From an uncultured Alphaproteobacteria bacterium (GTDB lineage Bacteria; Pseudomonadota; Alphaproteobacteria; RF32; CAG-239): DNA of 64,000 nucleotides. The DNA lies in contig CAJUAK010000003.1 in the NCBI GenBank assembly GCA_910584385.1, positions 9,206 to 73,205 on the forward strand. Reading direction: 5' to 3'. Every line of letters begins with the position of its first letter. Positions within the stretch are counted from its first letter, which is position 1. Position numbers and translations under genes: made by a program. Shown here piece after piece: positions 5,967 through 59,781 of this stretch. The notes below the pieces were generated by a model. That model worked only from the letters and a program-made list of their open reading frames with translations. It made no database searches and had not been told where the DNA came from.

Positions 5967-5972
5967 GAAAAT

Positions 5973-6285: not shown

Positions 6286-6302
6286 TTAGGATGGGTGTAT
6301 TT

Positions 6303-34586: not shown

Positions 34587-36023
34587 ATGAAAAAATCCTG
34601 GTATAAATTTTTAGGCATTCACTTTATTCTTTGGAGCATTATTCCCCTATTGCGCGGCAGCCTGCCCATGGACAGCATTGAAGCAATTGTCTGGGGACAA
34701 ATCGGCGGGCTGGGAACAAATAAGCACCCGACATTTTCAGGGTTTCCCGCAGATTTCTTTTATTGGCTTTCCGGCGGCAGCGACTGGGCAATTTATGCCT
34801 TGAGCCAACTCTTTATTTTGCTTGGTTTTATTTATATTTTCCGTTTGGCAAAACTTTTTCTCAACGAAACAAAAGCCATTCTTTCCGTTATGCTTTTGGA
34901 AGGCGTTATCTATTATGGCTTTGCTTCTGCGGAATATAACGTAAATATTGTTTCTTTGGCACTTTGGCCGATGGCTTCCTTCTATTTCTGCCGCGCAGTA
35001 TTGGAAGGGCGCAAAGCGGACTGGGCATGGTTTGGATTGGCCGCCGGCGCCAACTTATGGAATAAGTATGTCAGCGGCATTCTCTTCCTGGCTATGGCAA
35101 TGTATCTCCTCTTTACAAGAAACGGGCGCAAGCAGCTTAAATCTTTCGGGCCTTATTGCAGCGCGGCCATTGCGGCTGTTGTTATCGCACCCCATGTTTA
35201 TTGGCTTTACAAGCATGATTTCTTTGTTATTTCATACTTTATGAGCCGAAGCGGCGAAAGCGGCGCTTGGTACGGGCATTTGCTCTACCCCTTGAAATTT
35301 ATACTAGCCCAGCTCGCTGCCGGAGCTTTGGCATTTATCATCTTCTTTGTTGCTTTCTTTGGCGCAAAAAAACAAAAAAACACCATGAGCCATCAGAAAA
35401 ACCAATTGCTTTTCTATTTGGGAATTTTACCGCTCATTTTGTTTGCGGGAACAGCGCTTATAAGCGGTTCTCCCCTTAAAAGCATGTGGGGTTCGCCGCT
35501 TCTCTATATGCTTGGCATTTTACTTTTTGCCGGCTTTAATTTTGAGCTTAAAGAAAACACCGTTAATAAAGCCATTCGCGGCGTTTATGCCTCTATGGCT
35601 TTGCTTGGCTTTGCCGCAGCAATGGTTTATTTTTTGAATAAAAGCGAAAAAATGCATTTTCCCAGAAATGATTTTGCTTATCAGGTTATGGAAAAGTGGA
35701 AAGCAGAAACAAATAATGCACCGTTGCCTTATACGGGCGGCGAAATCTGGTATGCGGCAAACCTTTCCTTGACGAGCCCCGACCATCCTTTTGTTATCTT
35801 GGACACTAACTTGAAAAACAACCCCTGGGTGGCGGATAAGGACCTTTATGCGAAAGGCGCCGTCATTTTTGTGGGACGCCCGGATGACTACGCCAGCGCC
35901 CACCAAAAATATCTGGCTGTTTCTCCGTTATTTTCTCAAAATATTACTTTTAAAAACCGGATTGGAAAATCCAAAAGCAAAAATGTTTACTTCTTTATTA
36001 TCTATCCGGGAGGAGGTTTCTAA
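34587..36023 (+). CDS. GT39/GT83-type (ArnT-like) polytopic membrane glycosyltransferase
   Basis: 478 aa with about 11 predicted TM stretches and an N-terminal PMT_2-like loop. First gene of a translationally coupled operon. Confidence 0.7.
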   Translation: MKKSWYKFLGIHFILWSIIPLLRGSLPMDSIEAIVWGQIGGLGTNKHPTFSGFPADFFYWLSGGSDWAIYALSQLFILLGFIYIFRLAKLFLNETKAILSVMLLEGVIYYGFASAEYNVNIVSLALWPMASFYFCRAVLEGRKADWAWFGLAAGANLWNKYVSGILFLAMAMYLLFTRNGRKQLKSFGPYCSAAIAAVVIAPHVYWLYKHDFFVISYFMSRSGESGAWYGHLLYPLKFILAQLAAGALAFIIFFVAFFGAKKQKNTMSHQKNQLLFYLGILPLILFAGTALISGSPLKSMWGSPLLYMLGILLFAGFNFELKENTVNKAIRGVYASMALLGFAAAMVYFLNKSEKMHFPRNDFAYQVMEKWKAETNNAPLPYTGGEIWYAANLSLTSPDHPFVILDTNLKNNPWVADKDLYAKGAVIFVGRPDDYASAHQKYLAVSPLFSQNITFKNRIGKSKSKNVYFFIIYPGGGF

Positions 36024-36988
36024 TGGCAAAAGAAAAGTTAAGCATTGTTGTTTCTGCTTACAACGAAGAGGCTAATATTGCCGCTTTATATAAAGAATTG
36101 CAAAAAACAATAAAGAAACTTCCCTTGAAAAAGGTTGAAATCATTTTTGTAAATGACGGCAGTTCCGATAAAACCTATGAAGAATGCCTGAAATTGCAAA
36201 AAAAAGACGCTTCTGTTAAAATTGTTAACTTCCAACGCAATTTCGGACATGAGATTGCTATGACAGCCGGCATGGATTATGCCAAAGGGGATGCCGTTGT
36301 CTTTATGGATGCCGATTTGCAGCATCCGCCGGCATATATTGAACAAATGGTAAAAGCTTGGCAGGAAGGTTCTGAAATTGTTCTAACCAAAAGGGTAGAC
36401 AATCTTTCGACATCAAAACTCTATAAATTTATGGCTGCTTCCTTTTATAAAATATTAAATATGCTTTCGGATACGCATATTCCTGAAAAAATGCCGGATT
36501 TTCGGCTTCTTGACCGTAAATATGTGGAATTTTTGAAAAACTTTAACGAACATGACCGCCTTTTCCGCGGATTGCTCAGTTGGGCCATGCCCCGGGACAA
36601 AGTAACCGTATTGGATTTTGTGGCACCGGAACGTTTTGCCGGGGAATCTAAATATAATTTTGCCAAGAGCCTGCAATTGGCATTAAACAGCATTGTGCAG
36701 TTTTCAGTCAAGCCTTTGCGATTTTCAATTTATCTGGGAATTTTGACCGCGATGCTTGCCGGATTGCTTGGCATTTATGTGATTGCCGAACACTTCATTT
36801 TAAATAAGCCCACCCCTGGCTATGCTACAATTATGACAACCATTATTTTCATCGGTTCTATCCAATTAATCATGCTGGGGATTATTGGCGAGTATATTGG
36901 CAAAATCCATATGGAAGTTAAAAACCGCCCGCTTTATTTGGCTGAATTTATTGAGAAAGAAGAAAAAGATGCTCAAAAAAATCATTAA
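36023..36988 (+). CDS. GT2 polyprenyl-phosphate sugar transferase (ArnC/LgmA/FlmF2-like)
   Basis: LSIVVSAYNEEANI, VNDGSSD, FMDADLQHPP, and two C-terminal TM helices. The ATG overlaps the upstream stop (TAATG). Confidence 0.85.
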   Translation: MAKEKLSIVVSAYNEEANIAALYKELQKTIKKLPLKKVEIIFVNDGSSDKTYEECLKLQKKDASVKIVNFQRNFGHEIAMTAGMDYAKGDAVVFMDADLQHPPAYIEQMVKAWQEGSEIVLTKRVDNLSTSKLYKFMAASFYKILNMLSDTHIPEKMPDFRLLDRKYVEFLKNFNEHDRLFRGLLSWAMPRDKVTVLDFVAPERFAGESKYNFAKSLQLALNSIVQFSVKPLRFSIYLGILTAMLAGLLGIYVIAEHFILNKPTPGYATIMTTIIFIGSIQLIMLGIIGEYIGKIHMEVKNRPLYLAEFIEKEEKDAQKNH

Positions 36989-37805
36989 TGCCGACGATTT
37001 TGGGATTTCTCCCGGCGTCAACACCGCAATCGCCGAGGCTTATAAAGACGGTATTTTAAATTCGACCAGCATTATGATTAATTTAAAATATGTCAATCAC
37101 GCCTTGCATCTGGCACAATCTATGCCAAACTTGAATATCGGGCTGCATATAAACCTGACAAACGAAACGCCGCTTTCTCCGGCAGAGGAACTTCCGCTAT
37201 TAGTAAACGAAAACGGCAAGTTTAAAAATGGCTTTGTTAATTTGCTCTTGCTTTCTTTCCTTAAGCCGCAAGAGTTGCGCAAACAGGCAGAAATAGAAAT
37301 CCGCCGGCAAATAGAGCTTGCGAAAACAATGGGAATTAACCTTTCCCATATTGACAGCCACCGCCATATCCATATGATTCCGCTCTTGTTTGACGTGGTA
37401 AAAAAATTGGCAGAAGAATATCAAATTCCCCGCATCCGGGTTGTTAACGAAAATATATTCAACACCTTACGGCATAATTGGAGTTTTGATTTTCTGTTTG
37501 ACGGCGGGCTCATTAAATATATGATTTTAAGGATGCTGGCTTTTTACAACAGATACCCCAGCGATACTTATTTTTACACCATTCTCTACACCTGCAAAAT
37601 CGGACGCAATCGTTTTAACAAACTAAAAATCCCTGCAAAATACAAAGCAATTGAAGTGGGAATCCATCCCGGACACCCGGATATTGACCGCAATTACGGA
37701 AAGGACATCTTTGACAATAACCTTTTGAACCATTTCCGGGAAATTGAATTTAATACGGTGATGGATAAAAATATCCTAAACGAGATTGTTGAGAATGATC
37801 GTTAA
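36969..37805 (+). CDS. YdjC/ChbG-family carbohydrate deacetylase (NaxD/LgmC-like)
   Basis: MLKKIINADDFGISPGVN..I and HIDSHRHIH motifs. The start at 36969 overlaps the GT2 gene by 20 nt. Confidence 0.85.
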   Translation: MLKKIINADDFGISPGVNTAIAEAYKDGILNSTSIMINLKYVNHALHLAQSMPNLNIGLHINLTNETPLSPAEELPLLVNENGKFKNGFVNLLLLSFLKPQELRKQAEIEIRRQIELAKTMGINLSHIDSHRHIHMIPLLFDVVKKLAEEYQIPRIRVVNENIFNTLRHNWSFDFLFDGGLIKYMILRMLAFYNRYPSDTYFYTILYTCKIGRNRFNKLKIPAKYKAIEVGIHPGHPDIDRNYGKDIFDNNLLNHFREIEFNTVMDKNILNEIVENDR

Positions 37806-38211
37806 ATCTTATCTGTTTTTAGAAAAAATCTGGTTTCGTTTTAACCAAAAAATCCGTTTTATACTCGTGGGCGGGTTTAACACGGTTTTGGCATATTGCT
37901 TGTTTGCCGGACTGTATCAATTTGCCGGGCTGAATTATAACCTGGCATTAATTACGCAAAACATCATCACAATCAATGTTTCATTTTTGACTATGCGTTA
38001 TTATGTTTTTCAGAGCCATGGCATTTTCTGGCGAGAATATGTGAAAACCTTCAGCGTTTATATCGGCATGTATTTTTTAAATGCTTTTGTTTTAAATTTA
38101 TTGGTCATCGTTTTAAAACTTCCGCCTTTAATTGCCCAAGCTGTTTATTTAACGGTTTCCACCATCACAACTTATCTGCTGCATAAATATTTTTCTTTTC
38201 GTCGGCCGTAA
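37795..38211 (+). CDS. GtrA-family membrane protein
   Basis: IRFILVGGFNTVLAY with four TM segments. The ATG at 37795 overlaps the YdjC stop. Confidence 0.8.
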   Translation: MIVKSYLFLEKIWFRFNQKIRFILVGGFNTVLAYCLFAGLYQFAGLNYNLALITQNIITINVSFLTMRYYVFQSHGIFWREYVKTFSVYIGMYFLNAFVLNLLVIVLKLPPLIAQAVYLTVSTITTYLLHKYFSFRRP

Positions 38212-38213
38212 GC

Positions 38214-41200
38214 TTATAAACAAGTGATATATTTATACTCGCCGTTTACTGCACCAACCAATGCTGCTTGTCCCGGGCATTTGTCTTCCGAATAAGACAT
38301 TGCATCAACTTTGCAGTATTTTCCTTTGTTTTCCTTGGTCTTCTTATCTTCACAGATATCTGCCGTATCCTGAACCAAGAGCGGTCCGCAGCTGTCTCCA
38401 TAGAAGGTATAGTTGCCTTCTTCATTTGGCGTGCTTGAGCGGCGATAGCATCTAAGCGTGCCTTCTTTTAATTCGGTCGTATCATTTCTCATATTCTTAC
38501 AAGACGATTCTGTTTTATCATATGCCGCCGGACAATTGCAGGCACTATAACGCGTTACATTCATTGAGCCATTTTTAACGCTAAATACTTTTGAGCCTGA
38601 TAATTCATAGGGTTCCTTACAATTATCTTCCGTATAAGGATATTGATTCAGCATATCTTTACCGATAGCACATTTATATAATGACTGGTATGTGCAATTT
38701 TTGGTACAGCTTACCCAATTATCCGCAAATTCACAATTATTCTCAACTTCTGCCAATGAATAAGGGTAAGTACATTGCCCATTATCAACACAGGGACAAG
38801 AGCCATTTGTATATTTTTTTGTTCCATTACCGTTTTCACTACAGAAATCTGCCCCGGGCTGTATGTTGTCAGAACATGTCACTGTATATTTGCTGGAACA
38901 GCTGCATTTTTCATAAAGAGTTACTTCCTTGCCGTCAATGCTTGTCGTACAACCATTTCCTAACGAATATTTCGCCGCATTTTCCGCCGTATCTCCGGGA
39001 TCTGTGCCATCACATTTATATTTGAAAGTTTCTCCGCAAGAACAGCTGCTGTATTTTGGCGTTACGACCTTATTTACTCCGTTATAGGTAATTTGTTCGC
39101 AAACGGCTTTACTGTCGCTTGGCGTTGTATCGCAAGTTTTATTAAATTCCGAAAGGCATTTGCAGCCTTTATAAAAACTTTTTTTAGTGCCGCTGCTGTC
39201 CTGGCTTTCACAATAATCATCTGCAGAATCTGGTATCTGCCCATTGCCATCACAAGTTTCTCTATATGCGCTTTCGCAAGTACAGCTTGCATAAACCGTT
39301 CTGCCAGAGCTTCCATCCGCATTTAACGGCGTGCATGCTGTTTCTTTTTCCGTATTTGCTGGGCATTGCAGATAGCTAACCGGGCAACGGCATTCTTTAA
39401 AGAGTTTGTTACCCATCGAATCTATACACCAATCCGTTCCCAAGGCGTCAGCATTGTATCCGGAACAGGTATATTTATAACCGTTTGATTTACAATCTGA
39501 CGTATCTTGGCATTCAGCGTATTTTATGCTTCCGTCTGCCGATGTACAACTTCTCCCTTTACCAACCTGCTGTGCATTGCAGGTTTTAAATATATTTTCC
39601 TCATCTTCCGAGCAATCAGCATTACCAACACATTTGCTGTATAAAGTCCCTTTTTCAGAATCATAACAAGATGTTGCATCTTCTGCCGGAGATGTTGACG
39701 AGCAGGAACTGTAATTTGAAGGGCAACGGCATTTATAATTAACATTGCCCTCTGCTGTCAGGCAAGGCGCATATTTTTCCTGATTATCTGCACAAGCTTC
39801 ACGATGTTTATCGGTGCATGAGGCTGCCGGAACAGTACAAGATTGGTAATAAGAAACGCCGTTTAATACGCAGGCACTGCCAACCCCGACTTCTTTGTCT
39901 TTGCAGATTTTATTGTAACCAGAAGCACAAGTGCATTTTTCAAAATAAGCCTGTCCGTTGCGCGTGCACATATTAACGCCAACCTGTAACGGATCGTTGC
40001 AAACCTCAGCCTCACCGTTGCGGCATTCGTTTTTGCTTACGCAAGATTGGTAATAATTATCGCCATCCAAGCTGCAAGGTTTGCCAACGCCAATCAAATC
40101 TCCCGAGCATTTTACCCATCCGTCCGGACACTTGCATGATTTATAATTAACAACATTTCCCTGATTATCCTGGCAGCCGTTAACGCCTTCCTGAAAATCG
40201 CCCAGGCATTGCTTTACATGCTGCCAATCGCAATCACTCTCTTTGCATTGGTAATAACGCCCACCGCAGCCATTGTCTTTAACTATTCCGGTCGGTTTTA
40301 ATCCTGATGGACAACCATAATAGTAGTCTGTCCAGTTCTCAGGGAGGGGATCGGGTGCACATTCGCAACTGCGGTATTTTCCTTGGCAAGGTGTTCCGAC
40401 ACCCCGGAATCTCTCGCCATCGCAAAGCTGATTATATTCTTCAGGGCAACTACAAAAGGCATAATATGCCGTATTTGATCTTGTTCCATCCGCATTAAAC
40501 GGGCGGCAAGATCCTCCGGAAACCACACCATCCGTACATTGCTGGCATTTTCCTTTGCCCGCAGGACAGTCATCGCCGGCAACGGTAGATCCGGAAGTAT
40601 AAATGTAGCTCGGATGACATTCACATCCCGTATATTTTCCGCCGCATTGTTTTCCGGTCAAGATCATACGGATAGGACAATTTTCTTCATCATAAATATA
40701 CTCTCTTCCCGGTTTGCAAATGCAGTTATACCGTTCGTTCCCTTGAGGATCTACACACAAGTGGGGTTCTGCTCCCTCGCCCAGCCTGTTGACACATTCT
40801 TCCGCTGTTCGGGTAGTATCCGGTCCGCAGGCTTCAAGCGGAGCACGCTCGCAAAATTGATATAACTTTGTTTCATTTTTGAGGCAATATGGCGGATTCC
40901 CGTTAGGAACAGCTAAAGGATAAATGCATTCAGTTTTGTAAACTGAAGTATCACATTGGCATTCATATTTTTTCTCGCCATGAAGCGAACAAACGACCGG
41001 TACGGAAGCTGTTCCGGCGATGTCTTTGCATCCCTCTTCATTATCAGATAACAGGGCTCCGTTGCTGCAAGGCCTGTAAATACAAGAAGCATATAATAAC
41101 TTGCCACTATCAAGCTTACAATATTCTTCAACGCTTTCAGGAACCATGCTTTGTGCATAGCAATCTTGAACAACTTGTCCATCCCAATGATCTTCTTTTT

Positions 41201-44200
41201 TAGTTTTGCAGCCACATGCATATTTTATTTCTTTTTCATTATTATTTAAACATTCGTAAGATGCTGCCAAGGGGCCAAAATGTTCTTGACATTTTTGTTG
41301 CGTATCCGCCGTTATGCCGCTGCAAGCTTCATAAGTACAAATATATTTTGTCTTGTTTTCTGCCAAAGAAGCCCCTCTGACAATGCAGGTCCTTTGATTA
41401 TTGAGTTCTATTCCTTTGCAAGGCCTGTCGCTCAATGCTTCGTCCGATTCTAAAGAAACTGCCGAACAATCTGAAGCAATATCTAATTCAGAGTAAACCC
41501 AATCTTCTTCATTATCAGATTCTAAAGTACACGGATTAGCGCCTATCTCTCCCGGGAATAATTTACGGTAGCCTTCCGGACATTTGCAATACCAAGCAGC
41601 TGCACGCGGCCCGCTTAAATCGCTATATAAGCATAAATGAGAGGATGCACCGTCAACTTGTTGGCACACACTTTCCGAAGAATAGACTTTTCGCCCATCA
41701 CATTTATAGCTCTCGCTAATCCACTCGCCAGCTTTATCATTACAGGTTTCACCAACAGCAATCAGCTCTTCTCCTACTTCACAGAATGTGCACCCTTGCT
41801 CTTTGGTTTTAAACTCAACAGGGCACTGGCACATATAACGAGTCGATGAAGCACCGGCAATGCCACAGGCAACTGGATGCCGGACAAAAGATTTTATCTC
41901 AATGTCTTCCGGTTTTGGAGTCTCTGAAACTTTAACCGAAACACTTTGGAACGTTTGTTCACACAATGGGCTTTCCTGGCTGTCTGACGAACAAGGGATA
42001 CCACAATATTGATATTTGTTTTCTTGGTCATAATAACAAACGTGTCCGATACCCGACTCGCCATCCTGACACTCATTAGATGTCTTGTAGCCATCAATTT
42101 CTTTACAATTTCCCAATGCATCACAAATTATTTGCTTTGTTGGGCAAGAACAAACCTTATTAATCTTCGAATTTGTTTCATCCCAGCAGGCAGAATCCAT
42201 ATCTTTGGACTGGATACATTTTGGTGAAGTGCTTAAGGGCAGAAAACTGTCATCACAATCATAAGTTTCTACGGTAACGCCATTTTCTACGCTGGTTTTG
42301 GTTTTTGCCGTTCCTAGCCATTTGTCAAAGGCACAACAGGTAATACGATCGCCTGTACAGGTTTCGCTCATGCGGTGAGTGTCCTTGTTTGCACAATAAG
42401 TATCCGCACGCCAGTTTTTGCTGGATTTGCATTGCCCAATAGCAGGAGAATCTATTTCAAAACTCCCGGCTTCTAAACAATTATCCCCTAAAGGAGAAAA
42501 TTGACAGCAAGGATCTGTCGTTTTACAAGGTGTCGGCGTTCCTCTTTGTGAAGCCTTATTACAATAAAAATTATCATTTGCCGAATATGACCTATAATAA
42601 CCACTTTGATATGACTGCCATACTAAACCATATTGCCTTTTACTTTCAGGATTTTTTTGTCCTTTATCTGTAATTGTGTAAGCATATCGCCCTTCATTGC
42701 CATCTAACTCATCTACAATTTCATCATTTTCATCAAATATGTAATAGTCAAATTCATTCTGATAAAAGGCAGGATAACATTTCTTTTGAGTATTTGCAAT
42801 TTCAATACTATTTCCTACTTCCTGAGCTCTTTTCTGGCAACTTCCCTCTAAAGGCGTGGTAGAACCTTTTTCTACATAACAACATCTTTGATTTGCATTT
42901 AATTTATATGTACCATCAAACTTACAATTTGAAGCAACAAACCCATTCTCTACGCAATAAAAGCCACTTTCAGGCACGGCTTCCGTTCTGATGACTGAAC
43001 AAGAACCCTTTCCATCACGTGTATCGGCATTTCCAATAAATGTACTGCAACTGCTTGAAGAATCTGCATCCGCATTAAATTTGCAACAAAGGCGTTCATC
43101 TTCCGGAATATCTGTGCAGGAATAAGTAGGAACCGTTATTTTACTCTCATCATATTTTACAGGATACTCTCCTATTAACATCCCGTTTTCTTCAGATACT
43201 TTCCGAGCACAGAATTCGCCTTCTTTATGGATATACTGAATTTTACAACTGCTGCCTTCCGCTTTCGTATAACTCCGTGAACATAGGCGACCAGAATCTC
43301 CTGAAGGAAGATTATAACTATAAGGACCGGTTTGGAATCTTCCATCAATAACATGGCAGCAAACTGTCAAGGGAGAATCTGTCGTATTAGCCGGACAGTC
43401 TGTTTCATAATAGCCGGCTACTTGACATATGCCATCCAAAGTCGTGAAATTATCTTTATCGTTCAACTGGCAGAGACTGCTATCTTTTGATAAGGAAACC
43501 TCATAAGATTTTGATATTTCGCTATCACCACTTTTTATTGTTACCTTGCATTGCCGCTGTCCCCAAATATCCAGTTTGCAAAGCCCATAAATTATGGATT
43601 GGCATGCTTGAAAATCAGAAGCTATATTACAGTCAGCCACCACATATTTATCTTGGGCATTAGCGCTATTAAAGCAAAATTGCCCACTTTTGGGCGTTAA
43701 AACGCTTAAATCTTCATTATTAGCATCCTGGCATTGGTTCAGGATTTCCTTGCTGGTTGCTTTCCAATTGTTTGAGCACTGGATTGATGTATAATTATTT
43801 TCCTGAAAATAACAACATTTTGCAGCTGATTTTGTAGCTCCTGCCGTATCGTAAGAAACAGCAACACCATCTTTGGTATAACAACTGTTGAGCCATTTTC
43901 CGTTTGCATCTGCGCAATAATATCCCGTCTCAAAAGGAGGCTGTGCCTTTTCAATACACTTTCCCGTTCCTACATTATCCGGGTCTTCTTCCCAACTATC
44001 ATAACATGTTTCTTCGCCTTCATAATCAATAAACTCACTAGCAAATTCACAACACTTTTTTGCTCCTTTGGCTTCATCACAACTTCCGACATAGTAACCA
44101 TCTTCAGTAGCACAAAAGTGTCCATTGCTCGGCGCCATTTTTTGGGTACATAATGTTCCCTCCCAGGTATAGGCTGGACTGCAAAAACGCCAATGATTAT

Positions 44201-45794
44201 CATTTATATCTTCACTTTCAAAAGGTGTAATTGAGCAGCAACGAATTTCTTTATTATAATTTGCGGAACAAGGCTGTTGAACATATCCAGAAGCGGTATA
44301 ATCTAATGTTTTATTATGTAAATCTCCACCAGCTAAGGAGCAGGTTTGCCCTCCATCTTTTGACCAGAGATGATATCTCACACCGTCACTTAAAGTACAT
44401 TCAAATCCCCCTTTCTCATAAGGAGATTTCTTTCCCTCTGATTTACACTTTGGCCAAATTTCTTTGCCATCACAATATGCTGTTGTTGCGTAGTCACCCC
44501 ATATTAATGGTATTCTTGCAGAAGTTTTTTTAATACAAATACCTGTAGGGACATCCGCAAAAGCAAGGGTTTCGATATGGGAGGTTTGGGCGGAAGCCAT
44601 GTAAATTTTATTTTCTGCCGAAGCTTGGTTTTCGATATTGTCCTGGCAGGCTTCATTATCCGGATGGATATTGCCGCCGGGAACGGTATCATCCCGTTTT
44701 GAATCGCAAGAATCCAAGCAAAACTGGTTATAAACATTATCCGTGCCATTATGGTTATAATAGCATTTATACCCTTTCGGCGTTTGACTTGCCGTACATT
44801 TTTTATATATGGGGCCGTTATCATCAGCGGCGCAGCTGCAAAATGAAATTATACGCAAAGCGCTCCCTGATTTTGACATACATTTTGTTTCATTCTGCCC
44901 ATAGGGGCAAGAAACCGCCGCCATACCACTTTCAGAAGCATTTACAACAGAAGGGTATTCGCCCTGCAATGCCGCTAACTTTGCCTCGTCAACTTCTCCG
45001 CTGTCGGTTAAGGCATCTTGACGGAGAACATCTTTGCAATCTGGCAGGCAGTATTCATATTTATAAAAGTTTTCATTTACAGTATGGCTTAGCCCGGTCG
45101 AGGCGTCCAGCGCGGTTTGCGCATCCCAAGGGCAAGCTTTGAAACCGGCCGGATGCACTGCATAAGTTTTTTCATTACCGTCTTCTTTATAAGTTTCTGA
45201 TTGGCAAATGAAACCATAGGAGCTTTCTGCCATCGTTTCAGAATAAAACCGGCGCGCATCAATATTTGTTTCGCTGCTGTCGCCTGCATAATATTTATAT
45301 CTGGAGTTGCAGGTATAAGAATCATAAGGGGAGCCATTTAATTCGCATTGGCGCCAGGGAACGCTGCTTTGTGTTCCATCCCGCCCGTTTACGGAAAGCC
45401 GGTCGTTTTTTCCGCAGCCTTCATCGCCGGCGCAGGCAACATATTTGCCCAGGCAGGAACGCCCTGAGCCCGTACTGCCTGAACAGTCTTCGCTATAATT
45501 ATGCGGGCAATCGCAACGCCATGCATCTCCCATGCCGCAGCTTACCACTGAAAAAACCGCACCGGCCGGGTTTAAATCGCTATATTTGCTTTGGCAAAGG
45601 GCAGCAGCTTCAACTTTGGTCGCCGCTTCAACATAATAGTCGCCGCATCCAGTTACCGAATAAGTAGAATGCTTAGAGTTATTTGCAGGCGCCGTAAAAA
45701 TCGTCTCTGTAATGGGCACAACGGCAGAACTGGCCGGATGCGCTTGCGCAAACACCAATATCGATAAGAATATTAGCAAACTATTCTTAAACAT
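38214..45794 (-). CDS. Giant secreted cysteine-rich modular protein (2,526 aa), family unknown
   Basis: Uninterrupted 7,581-nt ORF. It has a Sec signal peptide (MFKNSLLIFLSILVFAQA) and about 214 Cys by hand count. There are 8 CC-doublet modules and 21 C-x-C modules. I saw no TM segment, beta-barrel or known sorting signal. Confidence 0.85.
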   Translation of the reverse strand: MFKNSLLIFLSILVFAQAHPASSAVVPITETIFTAPANNSKHSTYSVTGCGDYYVEAATKVEAAALCQSKYSDLNPAGAVFSVVSCGMGDAWRCDCPHNYSEDCSGSTGSGRSCLGKYVACAGDEGCGKNDRLSVNGRDGTQSSVPWRQCELNGSPYDSYTCNSRYKYYAGDSSETNIDARRFYSETMAESSYGFICQSETYKEDGNEKTYAVHPAGFKACPWDAQTALDASTGLSHTVNENFYKYEYCLPDCKDVLRQDALTDSGEVDEAKLAALQGEYPSVVNASESGMAAVSCPYGQNETKCMSKSGSALRIISFCSCAADDNGPIYKKCTASQTPKGYKCYYNHNGTDNVYNQFCLDSCDSKRDDTVPGGNIHPDNEACQDNIENQASAENKIYMASAQTSHIETLAFADVPTGICIKKTSARIPLIWGDYATTAYCDGKEIWPKCKSEGKKSPYEKGGFECTLSDGVRYHLWSKDGGQTCSLAGGDLHNKTLDYTASGYVQQPCSANYNKEIRCCSITPFESEDINDNHWRFCSPAYTWEGTLCTQKMAPSNGHFCATEDGYYVGSCDEAKGAKKCCEFASEFIDYEGEETCYDSWEEDPDNVGTGKCIEKAQPPFETGYYCADANGKWLNSCYTKDGVAVSYDTAGATKSAAKCCYFQENNYTSIQCSNNWKATSKEILNQCQDANNEDLSVLTPKSGQFCFNSANAQDKYVVADCNIASDFQACQSIIYGLCKLDIWGQRQCKVTIKSGDSEISKSYEVSLSKDSSLCQLNDKDNFTTLDGICQVAGYYETDCPANTTDSPLTVCCHVIDGRFQTGPYSYNLPSGDSGRLCSRSYTKAEGSSCKIQYIHKEGEFCARKVSEENGMLIGEYPVKYDESKITVPTYSCTDIPEDERLCCKFNADADSSSSCSTFIGNADTRDGKGSCSVIRTEAVPESGFYCVENGFVASNCKFDGTYKLNANQRCCYVEKGSTTPLEGSCQKRAQEVGNSIEIANTQKKCYPAFYQNEFDYYIFDENDEIVDELDGNEGRYAYTITDKGQKNPESKRQYGLVWQSYQSGYYRSYSANDNFYCNKASQRGTPTPCKTTDPCCQFSPLGDNCLEAGSFEIDSPAIGQCKSSKNWRADTYCANKDTHRMSETCTGDRITCCAFDKWLGTAKTKTSVENGVTVETYDCDDSFLPLSTSPKCIQSKDMDSACWDETNSKINKVCSCPTKQIICDALGNCKEIDGYKTSNECQDGESGIGHVCYYDQENKYQYCGIPCSSDSQESPLCEQTFQSVSVKVSETPKPEDIEIKSFVRHPVACGIAGASSTRYMCQCPVEFKTKEQGCTFCEVGEELIAVGETCNDKAGEWISESYKCDGRKVYSSESVCQQVDGASSHLCLYSDLSGPRAAAWYCKCPEGYRKLFPGEIGANPCTLESDNEEDWVYSELDIASDCSAVSLESDEALSDRPCKGIELNNQRTCIVRGASLAENKTKYICTYEACSGITADTQQKCQEHFGPLAASYECLNNNEKEIKYACGCKTKKEDHWDGQVVQDCYAQSMVPESVEEYCKLDSGKLLYASCIYRPCSNGALLSDNEEGCKDIAGTASVPVVCSLHGEKKYECQCDTSVYKTECIYPLAVPNGNPPYCLKNETKLYQFCERAPLEACGPDTTRTAEECVNRLGEGAEPHLCVDPQGNERYNCICKPGREYIYDEENCPIRMILTGKQCGGKYTGCECHPSYIYTSGSTVAGDDCPAGKGKCQQCTDGVVSGGSCRPFNADGTRSNTAYYAFCSCPEEYNQLCDGERFRGVGTPCQGKYRSCECAPDPLPENWTDYYYGCPSGLKPTGIVKDNGCGGRYYQCKESDCDWQHVKQCLGDFQEGVNGCQDNQGNVVNYKSCKCPDGWVKCSGDLIGVGKPCSLDGDNYYQSCVSKNECRNGEAEVCNDPLQVGVNMCTRNGQAYFEKCTCASGYNKICKDKEVGVGSACVLNGVSYYQSCTVPAASCTDKHREACADNQEKYAPCLTAEGNVNYKCRCPSNYSSCSSTSPAEDATSCYDSEKGTLYSKCVGNADCSEDEENIFKTCNAQQVGKGRSCTSADGSIKYAECQDTSDCKSNGYKYTCSGYNADALGTDWCIDSMGNKLFKECRCPVSYLQCPANTEKETACTPLNADGSSGRTVYASCTCESAYRETCDGNGQIPDSADDYCESQDSSGTKKSFYKGCKCLSEFNKTCDTTPSDSKAVCEQITYNGVNKVVTPKYSSCSCGETFKYKCDGTDPGDTAENAAKYSLGNGCTTSIDGKEVTLYEKCSCSSKYTVTCSDNIQPGADFCSENGNGTKKYTNGSCPCVDNGQCTYPYSLAEVENNCEFADNWVSCTKNCTYQSLYKCAIGKDMLNQYPYTEDNCKEPYELSGSKVFSVKNGSMNVTRYSACNCPAAYDKTESSCKNMRNDTTELKEGTLRCYRRSSTPNEEGNYTFYGDSCGPLLVQDTADICEDKKTKENKGKYCKVDAMSYSEDKCPGQAALVGAVNGEYKYITCL

Positions 45795-46107: not shown

Positions 46108-46448
46108 TTTTATCTCCTTTTTTAATATACTTTGTATATATGTTTACGCTGTGCCAAATAACACCGCCTGCTTCATAAAAAATATTCTATCTTTAAGCCC
46201 TCACATTTAAAGCGTGCTGTTTTTTCTATTGCTGGATTCTATTTTTTCTTACTTCGACGGCGCCGTCATATTCCAACTCATTGATTTTACATAACTTCAA
46301 AACAAAGGCTTTAATTATGTCCTTCTTTTACTAACCAATTTCTACACCATGTACGATTTTTTCGATATCTGATATTGTTTTTTGCTGATATACTTTTTTA
46401 AAATGCATCACCATAATATAAGCAACAAATAAACACGGAGACATGATT

Positions 46449-46670
46449 ATGAAAAATGATATCAGAGATACGAAAAATGACGTTATTGAAAGGAATATTG
46501 TTTTAATCAGCAAAATCTATGAAAGCTTTGAAGTCTTGGAGGAAACCCTTGGAGGCCTTAAGCTTGAAGAACCCCTCTTTATTATTAACGCTGCAAAAAA
46601 ATCTTTTGCAAACAGTGTTTATAACAGCATTAAAGGCAATGACCTTTATAAAGCGCATTTCAAAAATTAA
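46449..46670 (+). CDS. Small hypothetical protein, paralog A (73 aa)
   Basis: MKNDIRDTKNDVIERNIVLISKIYESFEVLEETLGGLKLEEPLF... The SD ACGGAG lies 8 nt upstream of the ATG at 46449. About two-thirds identical to paralog B. Confidence 0.7.
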   Translation: MKNDIRDTKNDVIERNIVLISKIYESFEVLEETLGGLKLEEPLFIINAAKKSFANSVYNSIKGNDLYKAHFKN

Positions 46671-46879: not shown

Positions 46880-47101
46880 ATGAAAAAAGATATGAGAGAC
46901 GAAACAGATAACGTTATTGAAAGAAATATCGTTTTAATCGGCAAGATTTACGAAAGCTTTGAAGCTCTGGAAGAAACTCTCGGAACCCTCAAGCTTGAAG
47001 AACCTCTCTTTTTAACTTATGTTGCCAAAAAAGCTTTCGCAAACAGCGTTTACAACAACCTCAAAAACGATAACACATACAAGACTAGGTTTAATAACTA
47101 A
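46880..47101 (+). CDS. Small hypothetical protein, paralog B (73 aa)
   Basis: MKKDMRDETDNVIERNIVLIGKIYESFEALEETLGTLKLEEPLF... The SD AAGGAGG lies at 46868-46874. Confidence 0.7.
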   Translation: MKKDMRDETDNVIERNIVLIGKIYESFEALEETLGTLKLEEPLFLTYVAKKAFANSVYNNLKNDNTYKTRFNN

Positions 47102-47169: not shown

Positions 47170-49122
47170 TTACTTCATATAGTTCAACAAAGACGCATTT
47201 AAGGCTTGTTGTAAAGCGGCATATGAACTATTTAGCGTGTTATAAGCCATTATTGCCTTGGTCAAAGCCTCTTCCCTGTTAACATTCTTAAGCGAATCGA
47301 CACTATTTTCCAGATTTGTTTTAACCTGAGTCAAATTATCATTGGCATTGTTCAAAACAATATAGTTAGAATTTATTTTCGCCTGAATGGTATATAAATC
47401 GGCATTTTTTCCTTCCGCGTTTTTACCGCCGTTAAAAATACCTTCGCTTACCAAATCCAATGCCTCGTTTATTCTGTCAACGACTGTCTGCGGATCTATT
47501 AAGCTGTCCAAATCATCCGCAGGGTCTCTTGTGTCGACCAAATTGCCCTGAGCGATGGTTCCCAAAGCTCTGAACAATTTTTCAAAGGCCGGGTCTTTGG
47601 CATTGATATCCATCGTTACCGACTGGTTTTCGGTTATCATTCTTTCTGTCGACAAATCTCCGCCGCGGTAATAAGATTCGGCGCTCATTTCCCAGTTAGG
47701 AGAATCAATTGTAATATCAATCCAGCGGTCAGGATTCATCGTTACATAAAGCTCTTTGCCATCTGCGCTGACGCCGGTTACCTGGACATTTTCAGCAATA
47801 TTCCGGTTTATATCCTGAAAACCGTTCATGTTTATAACTGCCCCCACCGGAAAAGAAGTGCTGAAAGTTACATTATTTGTAACGCCGCCGTCGGTATATT
47901 CCCCATTGGGAAGTGTCGGGTCAGCCTGAGGGCGAATCGGCGTTTTTTCATCGAAAGTTATTGTCCGCCCGTCTTCTGAAACAGATTTTATGATATAAGC
48001 ACCGTTTTTATCATCTCCGGCATTATTAATCACCAGCGTATCTCCGGCGCTCAAAGAATTGAAGGCTCCGTATTCCTGCGCATAAATTGTGTTATTCGCC
48101 GCATCAAAAGTGATGTCTCCGGTTGTTTTTTCATTAGCCTTCACGGCTTCTTTTAAGAAAGCTCCGGCATTTTCTGCGGTAATAACGCCATGGTTACCGC
48201 CTTCAGGCGCTGTGCTAAGCGTTATTTTTCCGGTCTCGCGGGAAGTAACATTCCGGTTGCTCAAATTGGCACTGGTATTTTGCGGGTATTGGATATTTAT
48301 TCCGTCATAATAGCTCTGGAACTCTTCCAATGTGTTAAACGGGAAGCTGATGGGCGCCTGTGAGGAAACGCCGCCGCCAAATATATATTTCCCGTTAACA
48401 TATGTGTTTAAGCTGTCCGCAATCATTTTCATTGCCGAAAAGGCGCTGGTTTGCAACTGCTGCATATTAAGGTACTGGTCTTTGCCCATGATATGCGGTT
48501 CTCCCGTTGCCACATTTGGCGAATCCAAAACCGTCGATGTGCCGTTTACCGTATACAGCGGAAAAGTAAACTTGTTCCCTTCAAAAGCAAAATCCGGATT
48601 ATCTGCCGAAAATTTCTGCTTTAAAGCTTCAACAACTTCCGTACCATAATCATCTGAATTCGGATCAAGAGCGCCGATATCAATATTTGTATCCAACGCG
48701 GCGTCTGCTGCAAAAGTATATTGCGTCCCGTTTAAGGTCAAAGTCTTCCCGATCAGGCTTTCGCCTTTGCTAAAGACGAGCTCGCCTCCTGTATAATCCG
48801 GGGTAATGTTCGGCAAATCCTGGCCGCTGAAATCATTTAGAATCGATTTGAAATCATTAATCGACTTGTCAATCGCTTCCACAGAAGTATTTAACGCTTT
48901 TATCTCGACTTCCAGAATTTTGTTATTTTCCATAAAGTTGCTGGTAACGCCCAGAGCGGCCTCCAGATTGACAATGTTATAGGCACTCATGCCATAACCT
49001 GAATAATTCGGCGCTTTCAAGCCTGTTGTAGCCTGGAATGTATATAAATCAAGCTGATATTGGTTATTTAACGTGTGCCGCGTTAAATTCATCTGACTCG
49101 CATAAGTGGGAACCCTAACCAT
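47170..49122 (-). CDS. flgL: Flagellar hook-associated protein 3 (FlgL), unusually long (about 650 aa)
   Basis: The N-terminal VRVPTYASQMNLTRHTLNNQYQLDLYTFQATTGLK and the C-terminal flagellin-like helix ...YNTLNSSYAALQQALNASLLNYMK. The SD AGGAGG (49129-49134) precedes the ATG at 49122. Confidence 0.8.
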   Translation of the reverse strand: MVRVPTYASQMNLTRHTLNNQYQLDLYTFQATTGLKAPNYSGYGMSAYNIVNLEAALGVTSNFMENNKILEVEIKALNTSVEAIDKSINDFKSILNDFSGQDLPNITPDYTGGELVFSKGESLIGKTLTLNGTQYTFAADAALDTNIDIGALDPNSDDYGTEVVEALKQKFSADNPDFAFEGNKFTFPLYTVNGTSTVLDSPNVATGEPHIMGKDQYLNMQQLQTSAFSAMKMIADSLNTYVNGKYIFGGGVSSQAPISFPFNTLEEFQSYYDGINIQYPQNTSANLSNRNVTSRETGKITLSTAPEGGNHGVITAENAGAFLKEAVKANEKTTGDITFDAANNTIYAQEYGAFNSLSAGDTLVINNAGDDKNGAYIIKSVSEDGRTITFDEKTPIRPQADPTLPNGEYTDGGVTNNVTFSTSFPVGAVINMNGFQDINRNIAENVQVTGVSADGKELYVTMNPDRWIDITIDSPNWEMSAESYYRGGDLSTERMITENQSVTMDINAKDPAFEKLFRALGTIAQGNLVDTRDPADDLDSLIDPQTVVDRINEALDLVSEGIFNGGKNAEGKNADLYTIQAKINSNYIVLNNANDNLTQVKTNLENSVDSLKNVNREEALTKAIMAYNTLNSSYAALQQALNASLLNYMK

Positions 49123-49132
49123 CATACACCTC

Positions 49133-51316
49133 CTATACAATGCTCATGAGCATATCTAAAATTTCTTTTGCCGCCGTAAATGTTTTTGCGCAAGCGGCGT
49201 AAGTTTGCTGGTAGATTATCATTTGAGACAATTCTTCATCAATATCGACGCCGCTGACCTGCGCTTCCTTTAATGAAATTGAATAAGTCAACTCCTCCTG
49301 ATAAGCCAACGCGCTCTGCGCATTGCTGGTTTGCGACGCAATGTTTCCCACAAAAGTGGATGCATAGTTGCCTAATGTTGTTTTGGTGGATGCGATTGTT
49401 CCCGCCTGCCCAAAATCAACTGTTGTGGTAAAGACTTTTGCCATATCGTTTGCAATATTATTTGAAGACGGATTCATCTGATATTCGCCGCTGTCCGGGT
49501 TAAATTCCGGCGTGCCTGAGGATATCAGGCTCGGATTAAGCTGCAAGTCCTCCCGAACGCCGATATTTCCGGATACGCTGGTATAAGACGGATTTAAGCC
49601 AATCCGGTTAATCAGCGTTGATGCGTTGGCAACTCCCGGATTTTCGGTTATTTCCATTTGTCCGCCGGTATTATTGATAATCCTCAGCATATACCCGCTT
49701 CCATTCGGAACCAAAGAAGCAACAATATTCTGGTTTAAATCTTCATTAGAATTTATTTTATTTACAATATCCTGCAAACTATCGGTGCTGGTTATGGTTA
49801 TGCTTCCGGCGATGCCTCCGGCTTCCTCCGTGGAAAACTGCCAGATAACCGGATTTCCATGGACGCCTAAATTTGCATTTTTGCTCAGGACTTTAGAATC
49901 ATAAACATATTCAGAATCGCTTACAAAAAAGTCGTTTAGCCCTAAAAAGCTTGAAAATCCTTCGAATTCCCGGTTGTAATAATCATCTCCCGTGGCATCA
50001 AAACTGACTGTTACATCCTGCTGGGCGCTTCCCGGCGTGGACGATGCCTCATCCATAATTGAAATGGTATATTCGCTGTTTTTGGTATCAATATAAAAAT
50101 GTCCGCTCTTATCTACCCCGACAACGGCATCCGTTAATCCGGGACCGCTCGGCGAACGCAGCCAGTCTTGAATAGTTGATGCAAGATTGTCAACCGTATC
50201 CCCGTCATCGGGAAAACCCATGCCGCCCAGCAAAGTTGTCGAACTAACCTCTTTGCCATCCTTGTCAAAAATTGTAAAACGCACATCGCCATTGCTTATT
50301 TTGACTTGCTGGCGCGCCGAATTTACAAATTCTCTGGTTCCGCTCAACTCATAAGGCATCGAAGGGTATGCCGTTCCGCGGTTGTGTATCTGGTTGACAG
50401 AGTCTTGAAGATTCCCTGCCAATTGGTCAAGCTGTGTCTGCAATGAGGGCAGAATTTCATCACGGACTTCGATCAGCCCCTTTAGCTCGCCATCTTTTAT
50501 TTTAGAAGTGATATCAACACCGTCAACATAAATCCCGTTAATTCCGCCGCCGGCATAAGATATTGTCGGGCTGGCCTGCGCAATGGCGCCATGCGTCAAA
50601 TAATGCGGGTCTTTATCAAGAAGCGTCATGCCGCTGCTTTGAATAACAATTTCGCCGTTATTGCGTTCAAAATAAGAAATGTCCAACATTTCGCTTAAAT
50701 CGCGCAGGGCGGCATCGCGCTGGTCAAGCAAGTCGGCTTTTCCATCATAGCCCAATACCGTATATTTTACGATATCATCATTTAATTCATCAATCGTCTG
50801 CAGGGTTTTATTGATTTTCTGAACCGCATTTTCGACATCGACATCAGCATCGCCGCGCAGCTTTTGTATTTCCGTCGTGAGGGAGTTCAACCTTCCTGCA
50901 AGGCTTTGCGCCGTGTTTAACAATCCATAACGCCCTGAAGCCGATGTTACATCCGCGGCAAAAGTATCAAAAGCCGTTTGCAGGCTTGCCACATTGGCAG
51001 CAATTGAATTATTGCTGGAAGGCGTTCCAAGCAGAAGTTCTGTTTTGCTTAAATAATCATGCTGCGCGCTTAAATTTTTCTGTTGCGAATTTGCCGCCAG
51101 ATAGCTTTTTAACAAGCCCTCATCAACTTTACGCCCGATTTCGCCTAATTCCACGCCACAGCTATAGCCGGCCAGAACCAGATTGTTTTGCTGGGCAACT
51201 TTTCTGGTGTAATTTGGCGTATCAACATTCGCAATATTTTGGCTGACAAGCCCTAATTGGCTTTGAGCCACTTTCATTCCGCTTATCGATGTTTGTAATC
51301 CTGCTAATAATGACAT
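49133..51316 (-). CDS. flgK: Flagellar hook-associated protein 1 (FlgK)
   Basis: MSLLAGLQTSISGMKVAQSQLGLVSQNIANVDTPNYTRK at the N-terminus, and the C-terminal SGVDIDEELSQMIIYQQTYAACAK. Confidence 0.92.
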   Translation of the reverse strand: MSLLAGLQTSISGMKVAQSQLGLVSQNIANVDTPNYTRKVAQQNNLVLAGYSCGVELGEIGRKVDEGLLKSYLAANSQQKNLSAQHDYLSKTELLLGTPSSNNSIAANVASLQTAFDTFAADVTSASGRYGLLNTAQSLAGRLNSLTTEIQKLRGDADVDVENAVQKINKTLQTIDELNDDIVKYTVLGYDGKADLLDQRDAALRDLSEMLDISYFERNNGEIVIQSSGMTLLDKDPHYLTHGAIAQASPTISYAGGGINGIYVDGVDITSKIKDGELKGLIEVRDEILPSLQTQLDQLAGNLQDSVNQIHNRGTAYPSMPYELSGTREFVNSARQQVKISNGDVRFTIFDKDGKEVSSTTLLGGMGFPDDGDTVDNLASTIQDWLRSPSGPGLTDAVVGVDKSGHFYIDTKNSEYTISIMDEASSTPGSAQQDVTVSFDATGDDYYNREFEGFSSFLGLNDFFVSDSEYVYDSKVLSKNANLGVHGNPVIWQFSTEEAGGIAGSITITSTDSLQDIVNKINSNEDLNQNIVASLVPNGSGYMLRIINNTGGQMEITENPGVANASTLINRIGLNPSYTSVSGNIGVREDLQLNPSLISSGTPEFNPDSGEYQMNPSSNNIANDMAKVFTTTVDFGQAGTIASTKTTLGNYASTFVGNIASQTSNAQSALAYQEELTYSISLKEAQVSGVDIDEELSQMIIYQQTYAACAKTFTAAKEILDMLMSIV

Positions 51317-51328
51317 GCTTCTGCCCTC

Positions 51329-51781
51329 CTAAAGCGTCCGGTTGATTGCCAGCGCATTATGATTATTATCCAACGGCGAATAGGCGCCGCTCGCCCCGTA
51401 TGATGTGGAACGGCTGTTATTGGTCGCTTTCGCTATGCGGATAATCGTATCCAAAACATTTTGGCTGGTTTCCATTCTGGTCTTTAACAAAATATCATTT
51501 TCTTTAAGCTTTTCCTCAAGCGCGAGGGATAAATCCTTTAAATTATTTCTGGTCTCTTCCGGGAGCTCTTTTAATGAATCGCGGTTTTTAATAAGATAGG
51601 CGGTCAAATTGCGATAGGAGCTGACCAGCTTTATTTTATTTTCATAAAGCTTTTCAACCATATCCGTGTCTAATTTGCGCAAAGCTGCGTTTTCCGCATC
51701 CAGCACCTCAGAAAAACGTGCCACGATATCAATAAAATCATGAACTTTTTTAACTGTTTCATTATTTTCATTTATTTCCAT
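51329..51781 (-). CDS. flgN: FlgN-like flagellar export chaperone
   Basis: 150-aa helical protein positioned between flgJ and flgK. It has an FlgN-like L..E..AL......+...L...K..L pattern. Confidence 0.5.
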   Translation of the reverse strand: MEINENNETVKKVHDFIDIVARFSEVLDAENAALRKLDTDMVEKLYENKIKLVSSYRNLTAYLIKNRDSLKELPEETRNNLKDLSLALEEKLKENDILLKTRMETSQNVLDTIIRIAKATNNSRSTSYGASGAYSPLDNNHNALAINRTL

Positions 51782-52152
51782 GACGCCATCCTCCCTTCTG
51801 CTTCAATATATCCTTTGCTGTCCATTTCCTGCATTTCCAAAATGGAAGACATTACATAATCTTTTACGCCAATTCCGCCGCTTTGAGCCATCGCTTTGCC
51901 ATATTCGTCAAGCAACATGGAACGGTATATTTTTTCTGCATTTCCGCCGCCAAACAAGCCATCTGTCGATATGCCTTCAAACATTGACTCCATCATCCGG
52001 CTCAGGAAAAAAGCTTCAAAACTGGTAGCGGTTTCTTCAATTTGCGCTTGCAGCTTTTTATCCTGCAATGAGGATAGTTTTTGAGATGCGGCAGACTGCG
52101 CCGGCATCTGCCAGCGTATATCCGCAATATTATTTTCCAGCCCCGTATTCAT
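51772..52152 (-). CDS. flgJ: Flagellar rod-binding protein (FlgJ N-terminal domain only)
   Basis: FEAFFLSRMMESMFEG....LFGGGNAEKIYRSMLLDEYGKAMAQSGGIG is the Rod-binding domain. There is no muramidase domain. Confidence 0.8.
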   Translation of the reverse strand: MNTGLENNIADIRWQMPAQSAASQKLSSLQDKKLQAQIEETATSFEAFFLSRMMESMFEGISTDGLFGGGNAEKIYRSMLLDEYGKAMAQSGGIGVKDYVMSSILEMQEMDSKGYIEAEGRMASWK

Positions 52153-52153
52153 C

Positions 52154-53278: not shown

Positions 53279-53352
53279 ATCTCTATAATCCCAATAAAAT
53301 AAACATATCGTTACGGGACTATATGCAAATTACATGCCAAATATTTTAGAAT

Positions 53353-54798: not shown

Positions 54799-54802
54799 AT
54801 CT

Positions 54803-57800: not shown

Positions 57801-57913
57801 TCAGGATAAAGGGAAATCGGCAGTGAAAAAACAGAAATAATTCCGGCTAATGTCAACACGATGGAGATTACCATCGCAAAGCGCGGACGTTCAATAAAAA
57901 TCCTAGAGAACAT
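54803..57913 (-). CDS. RND efflux transporter, AcrB/HAE1 family
   Basis: 1036 aa with [25 protein letters not shown] and a 12-TM RND architecture. Confidence 0.93.
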
Positions 57914-57916
57914 CTT

Positions 57917-59086: not shown

Positions 59087-59090
59087 TCTT

Positions 59091-59708: not shown

Positions 59709-59781
59709 ATTATCCTCAAATATACATTCACGGAGGTATATATTATATTTTTTTGAGGCAGGCAAGAAAAAAATGACTTTA

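Follow-up and report, generated by a model that had tools for sequence, protein, structure and literature searches.

A giant exported protein with a chain of four-cysteine units, probably a stalk or adhesin, in uncultured gut Alphaproteobacteria

The window analyzed here is a 64,000-nucleotide stretch of contig CAJUAK010000003.1 (assembly GCA_910584385.1) from an uncultured alphaproteobacterium, and its largest gene encodes a giant protein of 2526 amino acids (aa), 214 of which (8.5%) are cysteine. In the C-terminal half of this protein, small four-cysteine units follow one another head to tail, and the unit is an undescribed bacterial repeat without a match in Pfam, NCBIfam or the PDB; neither the protein nor the repeat was found described in literature searches. 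The protein is not an orphan: at least 28 species of uncultured Alphaproteobacteria from the gut have an orthologue. On balance, we favor the interpretation that it is a lineage-specific, exported, disulfide-stapled rod, probably acting as a stalk or adhesin.

The giant protein begins with a Sec-type signal peptide, which was its sole hydrophobic stretch in a hydropathy scan and which, to judge from the family pattern, is probably cleaved between ...YA and AVV. The consensus of the mature N-terminus in the family is A-V-V-x-I-x-D-T-x-F. Ser, Gly, Glu, Lys, Asp, Thr, Tyr and Asn are abundant in the protein, and Leu, Ile, Met, Phe, Trp and His are scarce. Searched as a whole, it gave no Pfam family at E ≤ 10 and no NCBIfam match.

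A repeat of four cysteines

An initial annotation of the window had described about 21 copies of a C-x-C motif resembling epidermal growth factor (EGF) domains, [YF]-x-x-C-x-C-[PASG]-x-x-[YFW]-x(2-4)-C, within residues 1215-2421. The coordinates given for this region were correct to the nucleotide (42152 for residue 1215 and 38532 for residue 2421), every quoted peptide is present, including three G-[VK]-G examples, and so are two similar modules, at residues 1763 and 2154. The motif itself is real, but its count was too high: the literal pattern matches six times, and C-x-C occurs 21 times in the whole protein and 19 times inside the region. Compared with 2000 composition-preserving shuffles of the C-terminal half, C-x-C alone was mildly enriched (19 vs 12.9 ± 3.2). 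C-x-C-x3-aromatic was found 13 times (1.1 in shuffles), aromatic-x1-2-C-x-C 17 times (2.2), the loose full motif 11 times (0.1) and G-[VK]-G-x-x-C four times (0.1), and none of the 2000 shuffles reached any of these four counts. CC (0) and C-x-x-C (2) were strongly depleted in the same half, with about 13 expected. A hidden Markov model (HMM) built from 13 seed modules gave 15 matches of at least 5 bits, as against 0.02 per shuffled C-terminal half (50 shuffles), and about 15-17 modules are recognizable by HMM.

The periodicity is statistically supported, but its period is four cysteines: the autocorrelation of log Cys-to-Cys gaps was 0.68 at lag 4 and 0.72 at lag 8, and none of 5000 shuffles was as high. 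The cysteines of residues 1855-2333 parse into 13 consecutive groups of four, with gaps of 7-8(11), 10-14(21) and 11-19 inside the unit and the first Cys of the next unit at +2 or +6-7. The +2 step is the C-x-C, and the other joints are 5-6 residues long. A unit of ∼30-45 residues can be written as Ca-[P-x-x-Y]-Cb-[..G-V-G-x-x]-Cc-[β-hairpin ..G..Y-x-x]-Cd. The module of the initial annotation is frame-shifted relative to this structural repeat, and C-x-C is the junction Cd-x-Ca' of two units. The N-terminal half contains a different, six-cysteine module that ends in a CC doublet (eight copies; lag-6 autocorrelation 0.45); its doublets have the form ..C-C-[YEF]-F, for example K-C-C-E-F, K-C-C-Y-F and V-C-C-H-V.

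Disulfide connectivity was approached through the paired gain and loss of cysteines in an alignment of 37 sequences, in which almost every cysteine between residues 1200 and 2340 is invariant. Cys1889 (the second Cys of C-K-C) and Cys1907 (in G-V-G-K-P-C) are jointly lost in the same three orthologues, with Val/Ile and Leu as replacements, and are probably disulfide partners. Joint loss in the same 13 orthologues likewise points to a Cb-Cd disulfide between Cys1589 and Cys1612, the first Cys of C-Q-C. Cys1693 and Cys1717, which flank the invariant Cys1706, are unique to this protein and would represent an added Ca-Cc disulfide; all 36 orthologues have Tyr/Phe and Ile/Val at these positions. 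A further pair near 2496/2514 is present together in 28 sequences and absent together in eight. Each changing pair brackets exactly one invariant cysteine, an i,i+2 relation for which the simplest reading would be that each unit holds two overlapping disulfides, Ca-Cc and Cb-Cd. The first Cys of each C-x-C would then close its unit backwards and the second would open the next unit forwards and, were every unit bonded in this way, some 100 bonds would run along the chain as an uninterrupted ladder. If the bonds were instead of the EGF C5-C6 type or closed hairpins, each co-varying case would contain two invariant cysteines without a partner. Two other candidates were discarded: in the pair 1459/1486, seemingly confined to this protein, C1486 is probably a conserved cysteine displaced by one alignment column, and the apparent loss of C2261 is an alignment shift.

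AlphaFold2 was run on 13-row family alignments of two fragments. The model of residues 1775-1990 (mean predicted local distance difference test score, pLDDT, 80.9) contains short β-hairpins only and no helix; that of residues 2119-2264 (mean pLDDT 88.4) also consists of short β-hairpins only, and its predicted template modeling (TM) score of 0.70 over four units suggests rigid packing between units. Foldseek searches of the PDB with these two confident models gave best E values of 0.89 and 1.0, with TM scores of at most 0.2 (0.21), and a search of BFVD with the 2119-2264 model gave a best E of 0.47. The top rows for the 1775-1990 model, none significant, were Cys-rich modules of eukaryotes, namely Argos, a double-ICK toxin, HVEM/CD40/4-1BB, NELL2, Serrate and FSTL3. 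Sequence profile searches of the PDB with four different alignments also produced no significant match. A unit that is absent from Pfam, NCBIfam and the PDB yet confidently modeled is a promising candidate domain family and should be an easy subject for structural work.

Distribution, conservation and inheritance of the family

An exhaustive HMMER search of 1.84 billion representative proteins with the module profile retrieved 34 proteins, about 16 of them giants of 1,700-2,700 aa with 15-24 module copies. By BLASTP, the giant relatives are 36-41% identical over 700-1500 aa (E 0 to 1e-125). Word-indexed homologue searches with the whole protein, a 16-sequence family alignment or the core found nothing other than the query or a single fragment. 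Because the exhaustive search recovered the family, this null result reflects a limitation of the tool, and for long, compositionally biased queries a self-only result from such a search would seem to be no evidence of an orphan. Genome contigs gave no match when scanned with the single protein; a scan of GTDB species genomes with an alignment of the conserved core detected 38 loci, all in metagenome-assembled genomes (MAGs) of uncultured Alphaproteobacteria or Proteobacteria. Many of these come from human gut, roe-deer caecum or rumen, and the names include 'Proteobacteria bacterium CAG:495' and 'uncultured Azospirillaceae'. No relatives were detected in a scan of viral contigs. Full-length orthologues (1,553-2,697 aa) are encoded at 28 of the 38 loci, and all 28 start with a signal peptide and the A-V-V-x-I-x-D-T-x-F motif, save that of L029, whose N-terminus is probably mis-called.

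Conservation along the protein is uneven. Identity to 36 orthologues peaks at 50-58% in residues 1801-2000, residues 1800-2200 as a whole are the most conserved (50-58%), likewise when Cys is excluded, and one core stretch, C-D-G-E-R-x2-G-V-G-x-P-C-N-G-K-Y-x2-C-E-C-K-P-D-x-L-P-E-N-W-A-D-N-Y-Y-G-C-P, is near-invariant. The N-terminal half is only 5-10% identical to the orthologues, and the last 300 residues are also very poorly conserved. The giant protein has the traits that define this unnamed family, namely the signal peptide with the mature N-terminal motif, the conserved core and the four-Cys array. Its 90% cluster comprises eight full-length strain variants with at most five substitutions, apart from one with a shorter C-terminus. 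Conservation in common uncultured Alphaproteobacteria of the human and animal gut (CAG:495 and relatives) makes the protein a candidate for contact with the host or with food particles.

Shorter secreted relatives, from the same MAG group and among other metagenomic proteins, fuse the four-Cys unit to domains resembling Lcl_C/DUF1566; the unit has the simple form ..C-x3-Y-x3-C-x3-5-G-x-G-x2-C-x-G-K-Y-x2-C-x-C.. in these proteins. Pfam and NCBIfam searches of the relatives returned nothing above the cut-offs. Related MAGs (loci L030-L039) encode a lineage-wide set of smaller secreted proteins with four-Cys units, many of which have Lcl_C/DUF1566-like domains and, at the N-terminus, a recurrent motif C-x2-T-D-C-x2-L-G-Y-T...C-x-K-C-P-F...Y-x-C. 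That the unit stands alongside Lcl_C-like domains in many small secreted proteins suggests that the lineage as a whole assembles surface proteins from a common kit of parts.

The initial annotation had noted that an array of EGF-like or laminin-like knots would be a eukaryote-like feature and proposed a codon-usage comparison for foreign origin. The deviation in this genome is real: G+C content at third codon positions (GC3) is 0.347 in the giant gene vs 0.39-0.53 in 24 other long open reading frames (ORFs) and 0.44-0.53 in its neighbors, TGT makes up 48% of its Cys codons vs 19% elsewhere, and its Kullback-Leibler divergence in codon usage, 0.084, is high for a gene of such length. At 15 orthologous loci, however, giant-gene GC3 ranges from 0.20 to 0.55 and tracks that of the neighbors, lying 0-0.08 lower. 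The low GC3 of the gene in this genome is only an exaggerated form of a slight deficit found in all orthologues, and recent foreign origin was rejected as its explanation. Because GC3 follows each genome and the gene occurs in at least 28 related species, the data indicate vertical inheritance and not recent acquisition from a eukaryote or other foreign source.

Proposed function, alternatives and genomic surroundings

In the interpretation that we favor, the giant protein would be exported by the Sec pathway and then fold oxidatively in the periplasm. The product would be a rod, long, stiff and resistant to proteases, that lies outside the cytoplasm, most probably at the cell surface or beyond it, and serves as a stalk or adhesin; species specificity would reside in the hypervariable N-terminal half, and the conserved core of residues 1800-2200 would have a role in structure or assembly. 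For this protein, export and modular architecture are established, and surface location and binding are suggested by analogy and by the fusion partners of its relatives: the Lcl_C/DUF1566-like fusions fit the role of an extracellular spacer for binding domains. Taken further, the four-Cys unit could be a new bacterial fold that builds a protease-proof extracellular fibre or coat element with ∼100 disulfides, carrying binding domains for host mucus or particles in uncultured gut Alphaproteobacteria and some other bacteria, and thereby an independent invention of the rod design of TNFR, EGFR and laminin. We put this extended proposal forward tentatively. To our knowledge, bacterial proteins with very many disulfides are rare, and one that has ∼107 potential disulfides and is conserved throughout a lineage of uncultured gut bacteria, presumably anaerobes, raises the question of how oxidative folding on such a scale is achieved.

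Several observations weigh against a surface-exposed, disulfide-stapled stalk or adhesin. The putative pairing is read from four co-variation events, some of which may be single evolutionary events. A location beyond the periplasm is an assumption. Among the conserved neighbors of the giant gene, which comprise only a TetR-MFP-AcrB cassette and flagellar genes, no secretion, anchoring or outer-membrane translocator partner was found. Pfam and NCBIfam reveal no recognizable binding domain in the giant protein, and the Lcl_C matches of its relatives (P0012, P0044 and the L030 protein) score 25-31 bits, below the Pfam cut-off of 34.9. Finally, the near-invariance of the protein within its species argues against a rapidly varying antigen and is silent on binding.

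The alternative advanced by the initial annotation was that the modules are genuine EGF-like or laminin-like domains, eukaryote-like and acquired for host interaction. Periodic Cys-rich modules in a secreted giant protein, together with a local likeness to the EGF motif, were borne out. In an hhalign comparison with eight EGF domains, a profile in the frame of the initial annotation reached 76% probability (P 2e-5) over 17 columns only, aligning Y-x-C-x-C-P-x-x-Y-x3-C with Y-x-C4-x-C5-x2-G-Y..C6 of EGF. The truncated EGF_2 core named in that annotation, C-x-C-x2-[GP]-[FYW], matched three times (0.2 expected), LDL-receptor EGF domains appeared at E ∼6 in a PDB sequence search, and one relative had a sub-threshold hEGF match of 16 bits (cut-off 29.3), the best EGF-family score in any relative; the reduced GC3 of the gene in this genome also fits such an origin. 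A profile in the unit frame, however, reached 0.9% probability, the full EGF_2 pattern did not match, and none of the EGF, laminin-EGF, TNFR, Furin-like or VSP families was detected by Pfam at E ≤ 10. PROSITE-style patterns gave 0 matches each for EGF_1, EGF_2, laminin-EGF, FN1 and TNFR. No EGF-rich eukaryotic protein was among the 34 proteins retrieved from 1.84 billion, and EGF-containing chains appeared in Foldseek, which is weak on tiny disulfide-rich domains, only at E 6-9. The period is four cysteines and not six, and co-variation contradicts a C5-C6 loop: for the EGF topology C1-C3, C2-C4, C5-C6, the i,i+2 pairs would be compatible with the 1-3 and 2-4 bonds and would exclude the C5-C6 bond. 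The occurrence in at least 28 species, with GC3 tracking each genome, speaks against acquisition. We conclude that the EGF likeness is real but local and that membership in the EGF family is rejected; this alternative is largely refuted already, and we consider it quite improbable.

Unlikely in our judgment is a periplasmic or flagellum-associated structural component, such as a disk, sheath or scaffold. It is suggested by a block of flgI/flgN/flgK/flgL-like genes, which adjoins the giant gene in the window and at ∼10 orthologous loci despite three different orientations. About half of the loci with full flanks nevertheless lack this adjacency, the genes do not form an operon because their orientation varies, the TetR-MFP-AcrB cassette is the more constant neighbor (∼160 bp upstream in 22-24 loci), and the protein has no similarity to any flagellar protein family. 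Very little favors the view that the cysteines bind metal or act in redox chemistry, in the manner of metallothioneins, zinc ribbons or Fe-S proteins, instead of forming disulfides. Cys content is very high, and a BFD-like [2Fe-2S] gene (67 aa) lies immediately upstream, but the signal peptide implies an oxidizing compartment, His accounts for only 1% of residues, the depletion of C-x-x-C and CC in the C-terminal half (2 and 0 vs ∼13 expected) runs against such sites, and cysteines are gained and lost in pairs with hydrophobic pairs as replacements. The BFD gene was also not among the recurrent upstream neighbors elsewhere, in a scan whose minimum ORF length of 70 aa exceeds that of this gene. 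The absence of annotation in any library and the atypical codon usage in this genome might suggest a chance long ORF or a decaying pseudogene. The 7.6-kb ORF is, however, intact in eight strains with at most five substitutions, and full-length orthologues in 28 species retain most cysteines as invariant and a core of 50-58% identity; conservation already refutes this reading, to which we attach almost no probability.

The position of the flagellar block reflects a local rearrangement in the window relative to L003, L006, L015, L018, L029 and other loci (Table 1). Most relatives have TetR-MFP-AcrB ∼160 bp upstream of the giant gene, with the flagellar block on its downstream side in convergent orientation; in the window, AcrB and the giant gene are separated by murE-flgI-flgN-flgK-flgL, and all of these genes share one strand. 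The 656-aa ORF that directly follows flgK is syntenic in ∼11 related genomes; it presumably encodes the hook-associated protein FlgL, although Pfam gave no match at E ≤ 0.1. Two small paralogous ORFs of 73-75 aa (MKKDMRDETDNVIERNIVLIGKIYESFEALEETLG...) lie in tandem and have no Pfam match; each is followed by a near-identical, terminator-like inverted repeat (cctgaatatt...aatattcagg), and the second repeat also stands directly behind the flgL-like gene, which is on the opposite strand. On the far side, a convergent operon of PMT_2 (ArnT-like), GT2, YdjC and GtrA genes ends three bases short of the giant gene's stop codon. We take this operon to resemble loci for hexosamine modification of lipid A, namely lgmABCD of Bordetella and naxD/flmK of Francisella; a link to the giant gene was considered and set aside, as the two are adjacent only in the window and L023 and are probably unrelated. 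ARAGORN marked a transfer-messenger RNA (tmRNA) gene with an asterisk (tag ANDNYAPVAVAA), which presumably denotes the permuted, two-piece type. Permuted two-piece tmRNA is typical of Alphaproteobacteria, and the type found here agrees with the taxonomy to which the related loci point. Otherwise, the window is unremarkable Gram-negative chromosomal DNA.

Table 1. Features of the giant gene, its product and their surroundings, in window coordinates
Feature	Coordinates	Strand	Basis or remark
Giant ORF (2526 aa, 214 Cys)	38214..45794	minus	ORF list, translation, composition
Sec-type signal peptide, residues 1 to ∼24	45723..45794	minus	hydropathy scan, orthologue N-termini
Conserved mature N-terminal motif V-V-P-I-T-E-T-I-F	45690..45722	minus	orthologue consensus, per-residue identity
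Hypervariable N-terminal half, residues ∼500-1200, second module type	42195..44297	minus	CC list, gap series, identity
Region of the initial annotation, residues 1215-2421, 19 C-x-C, 15-17 HMM-detectable modules	38532..42152	minus	
Regular array of 13 consecutive four-Cys units, residues 1855-2333	38796..40232	minus	Cys-position parse
Most conserved family core, residues ∼1775-2200	39195..40472	minus	alignment, conservation profile
AlphaFold2 fragment, residues 1775-1990	39825..40472	minus	
AlphaFold2 fragment, residues 2119-2264, four C-x-C-joined units	39003..39440	minus	
Cys1889 and Cys1907 pair	40071..40130	minus	alignment column table, pair scan
Cys1693 and Cys1717 pair	40641..40718	minus	alignment column table, pair scan
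Cys1589 and Cys1612 pair	40956..41030	minus	alignment column table, pair scan
TetR-MFP-AcrB cassette	54803..59765		displaced by the murE-flgI-flgN-flgK-flgL block
Local rearrangement	47170..59765		
656-aa ORF after flgK	47170..49140	minus	
First small paralogous ORF	46443..46670	plus	
Second small paralogous ORF	∼46880..47101	plus	
PMT_2, GT2, YdjC, GtrA operon	34587..38211	plus	
tmRNA gene	5963..6286	plus	ARAGORN

Comparison with known systems

The variant-specific surface proteins (VSP) of Giardia and the surface antigens of ciliates share with the giant protein a Cys content of ∼10%, a secreted or surface location and a repetitive build. They are, however, built on C-x-x-C, which is depleted here (2 vs 13 expected), and no Pfam VSP match was obtained. 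The giant repetitive adhesins of Gram-negative bacteria (RTX/LapA/SiiE type) resemble it in their size of at least 2-3 thousand residues, their long arrays of small extender modules and a variable distal part. Their repeats are Ig-like and stabilized by calcium, and they carry a C-terminal type I secretion signal, whereas the giant protein has a Sec signal, disulfide-stabilized units and no RTX or BIg match in Pfam. The MFP gene in the neighborhood was evaluated as a possible type I secretion component and belongs to the AcrB (resistance-nodulation-division) cassette, not to an ABC exporter. With Lcl and DUF1566 proteins (PF07603, Lcl_C) the likeness lies in the shorter relatives, which place four-Cys units before an Lcl_C-like domain in an arrangement of stalk and C-terminal binding domain. 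The giant protein itself has no Lcl_C domain by Pfam, the matches of its relatives are sub-threshold, and the stalk of Legionella Lcl is collagen-like and not Cys-rich.

EGF-like domains (PF00008, PF12661 hEGF; EGF_2) are likewise small, extracellular, Cys-rich β-hairpin modules in tandem arrays. Some copies of the repeat in the giant protein contain Y-x-C-x-C-x2-[GP]-aromatic, and the probable 1-3/2-4 disulfides are those of the N-terminal sub-domain of EGF. The unit differs in having four cysteines and not six, in placing C-x-C between units where EGF has it inside the domain, and in a bond from the second Cys of C-x-C that appears to skip the next Cys, leaving no C5-C6 loop; no HMM, pattern or fold match connects the two.

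The cysteine-rich domains of tumor necrosis factor receptors (TNFR), the furin-like regions of the EGF receptor (EGFR) and insulin receptor, and the laminin-type EGF repeats are rods of two-disulfide modules. Their overlapping 1-3/2-4 disulfides and almost absent hydrophobic core yield stiff extracellular stalks and binding surfaces. The giant protein differs from them in spacing, bacterial origin and the chaining of units through a single residue, and it has no sequence or significant fold similarity to them: the TNFR_c6, Laminin_EGF and Furin-like HMMs and the TNFR and EGF_LAM patterns did not match it, and the TNFR-family chains HVEM, CD40 and 4-1BB were among the top Foldseek rows without being significant. 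A functional analogy to these two-disulfide stacks, which is not demonstrable by Foldseek, may nonetheless hold. Like them, the giant protein would be an elongated stack of tiny modules, each held, as co-variation suggests, by 1-3 and 2-4 bonds.

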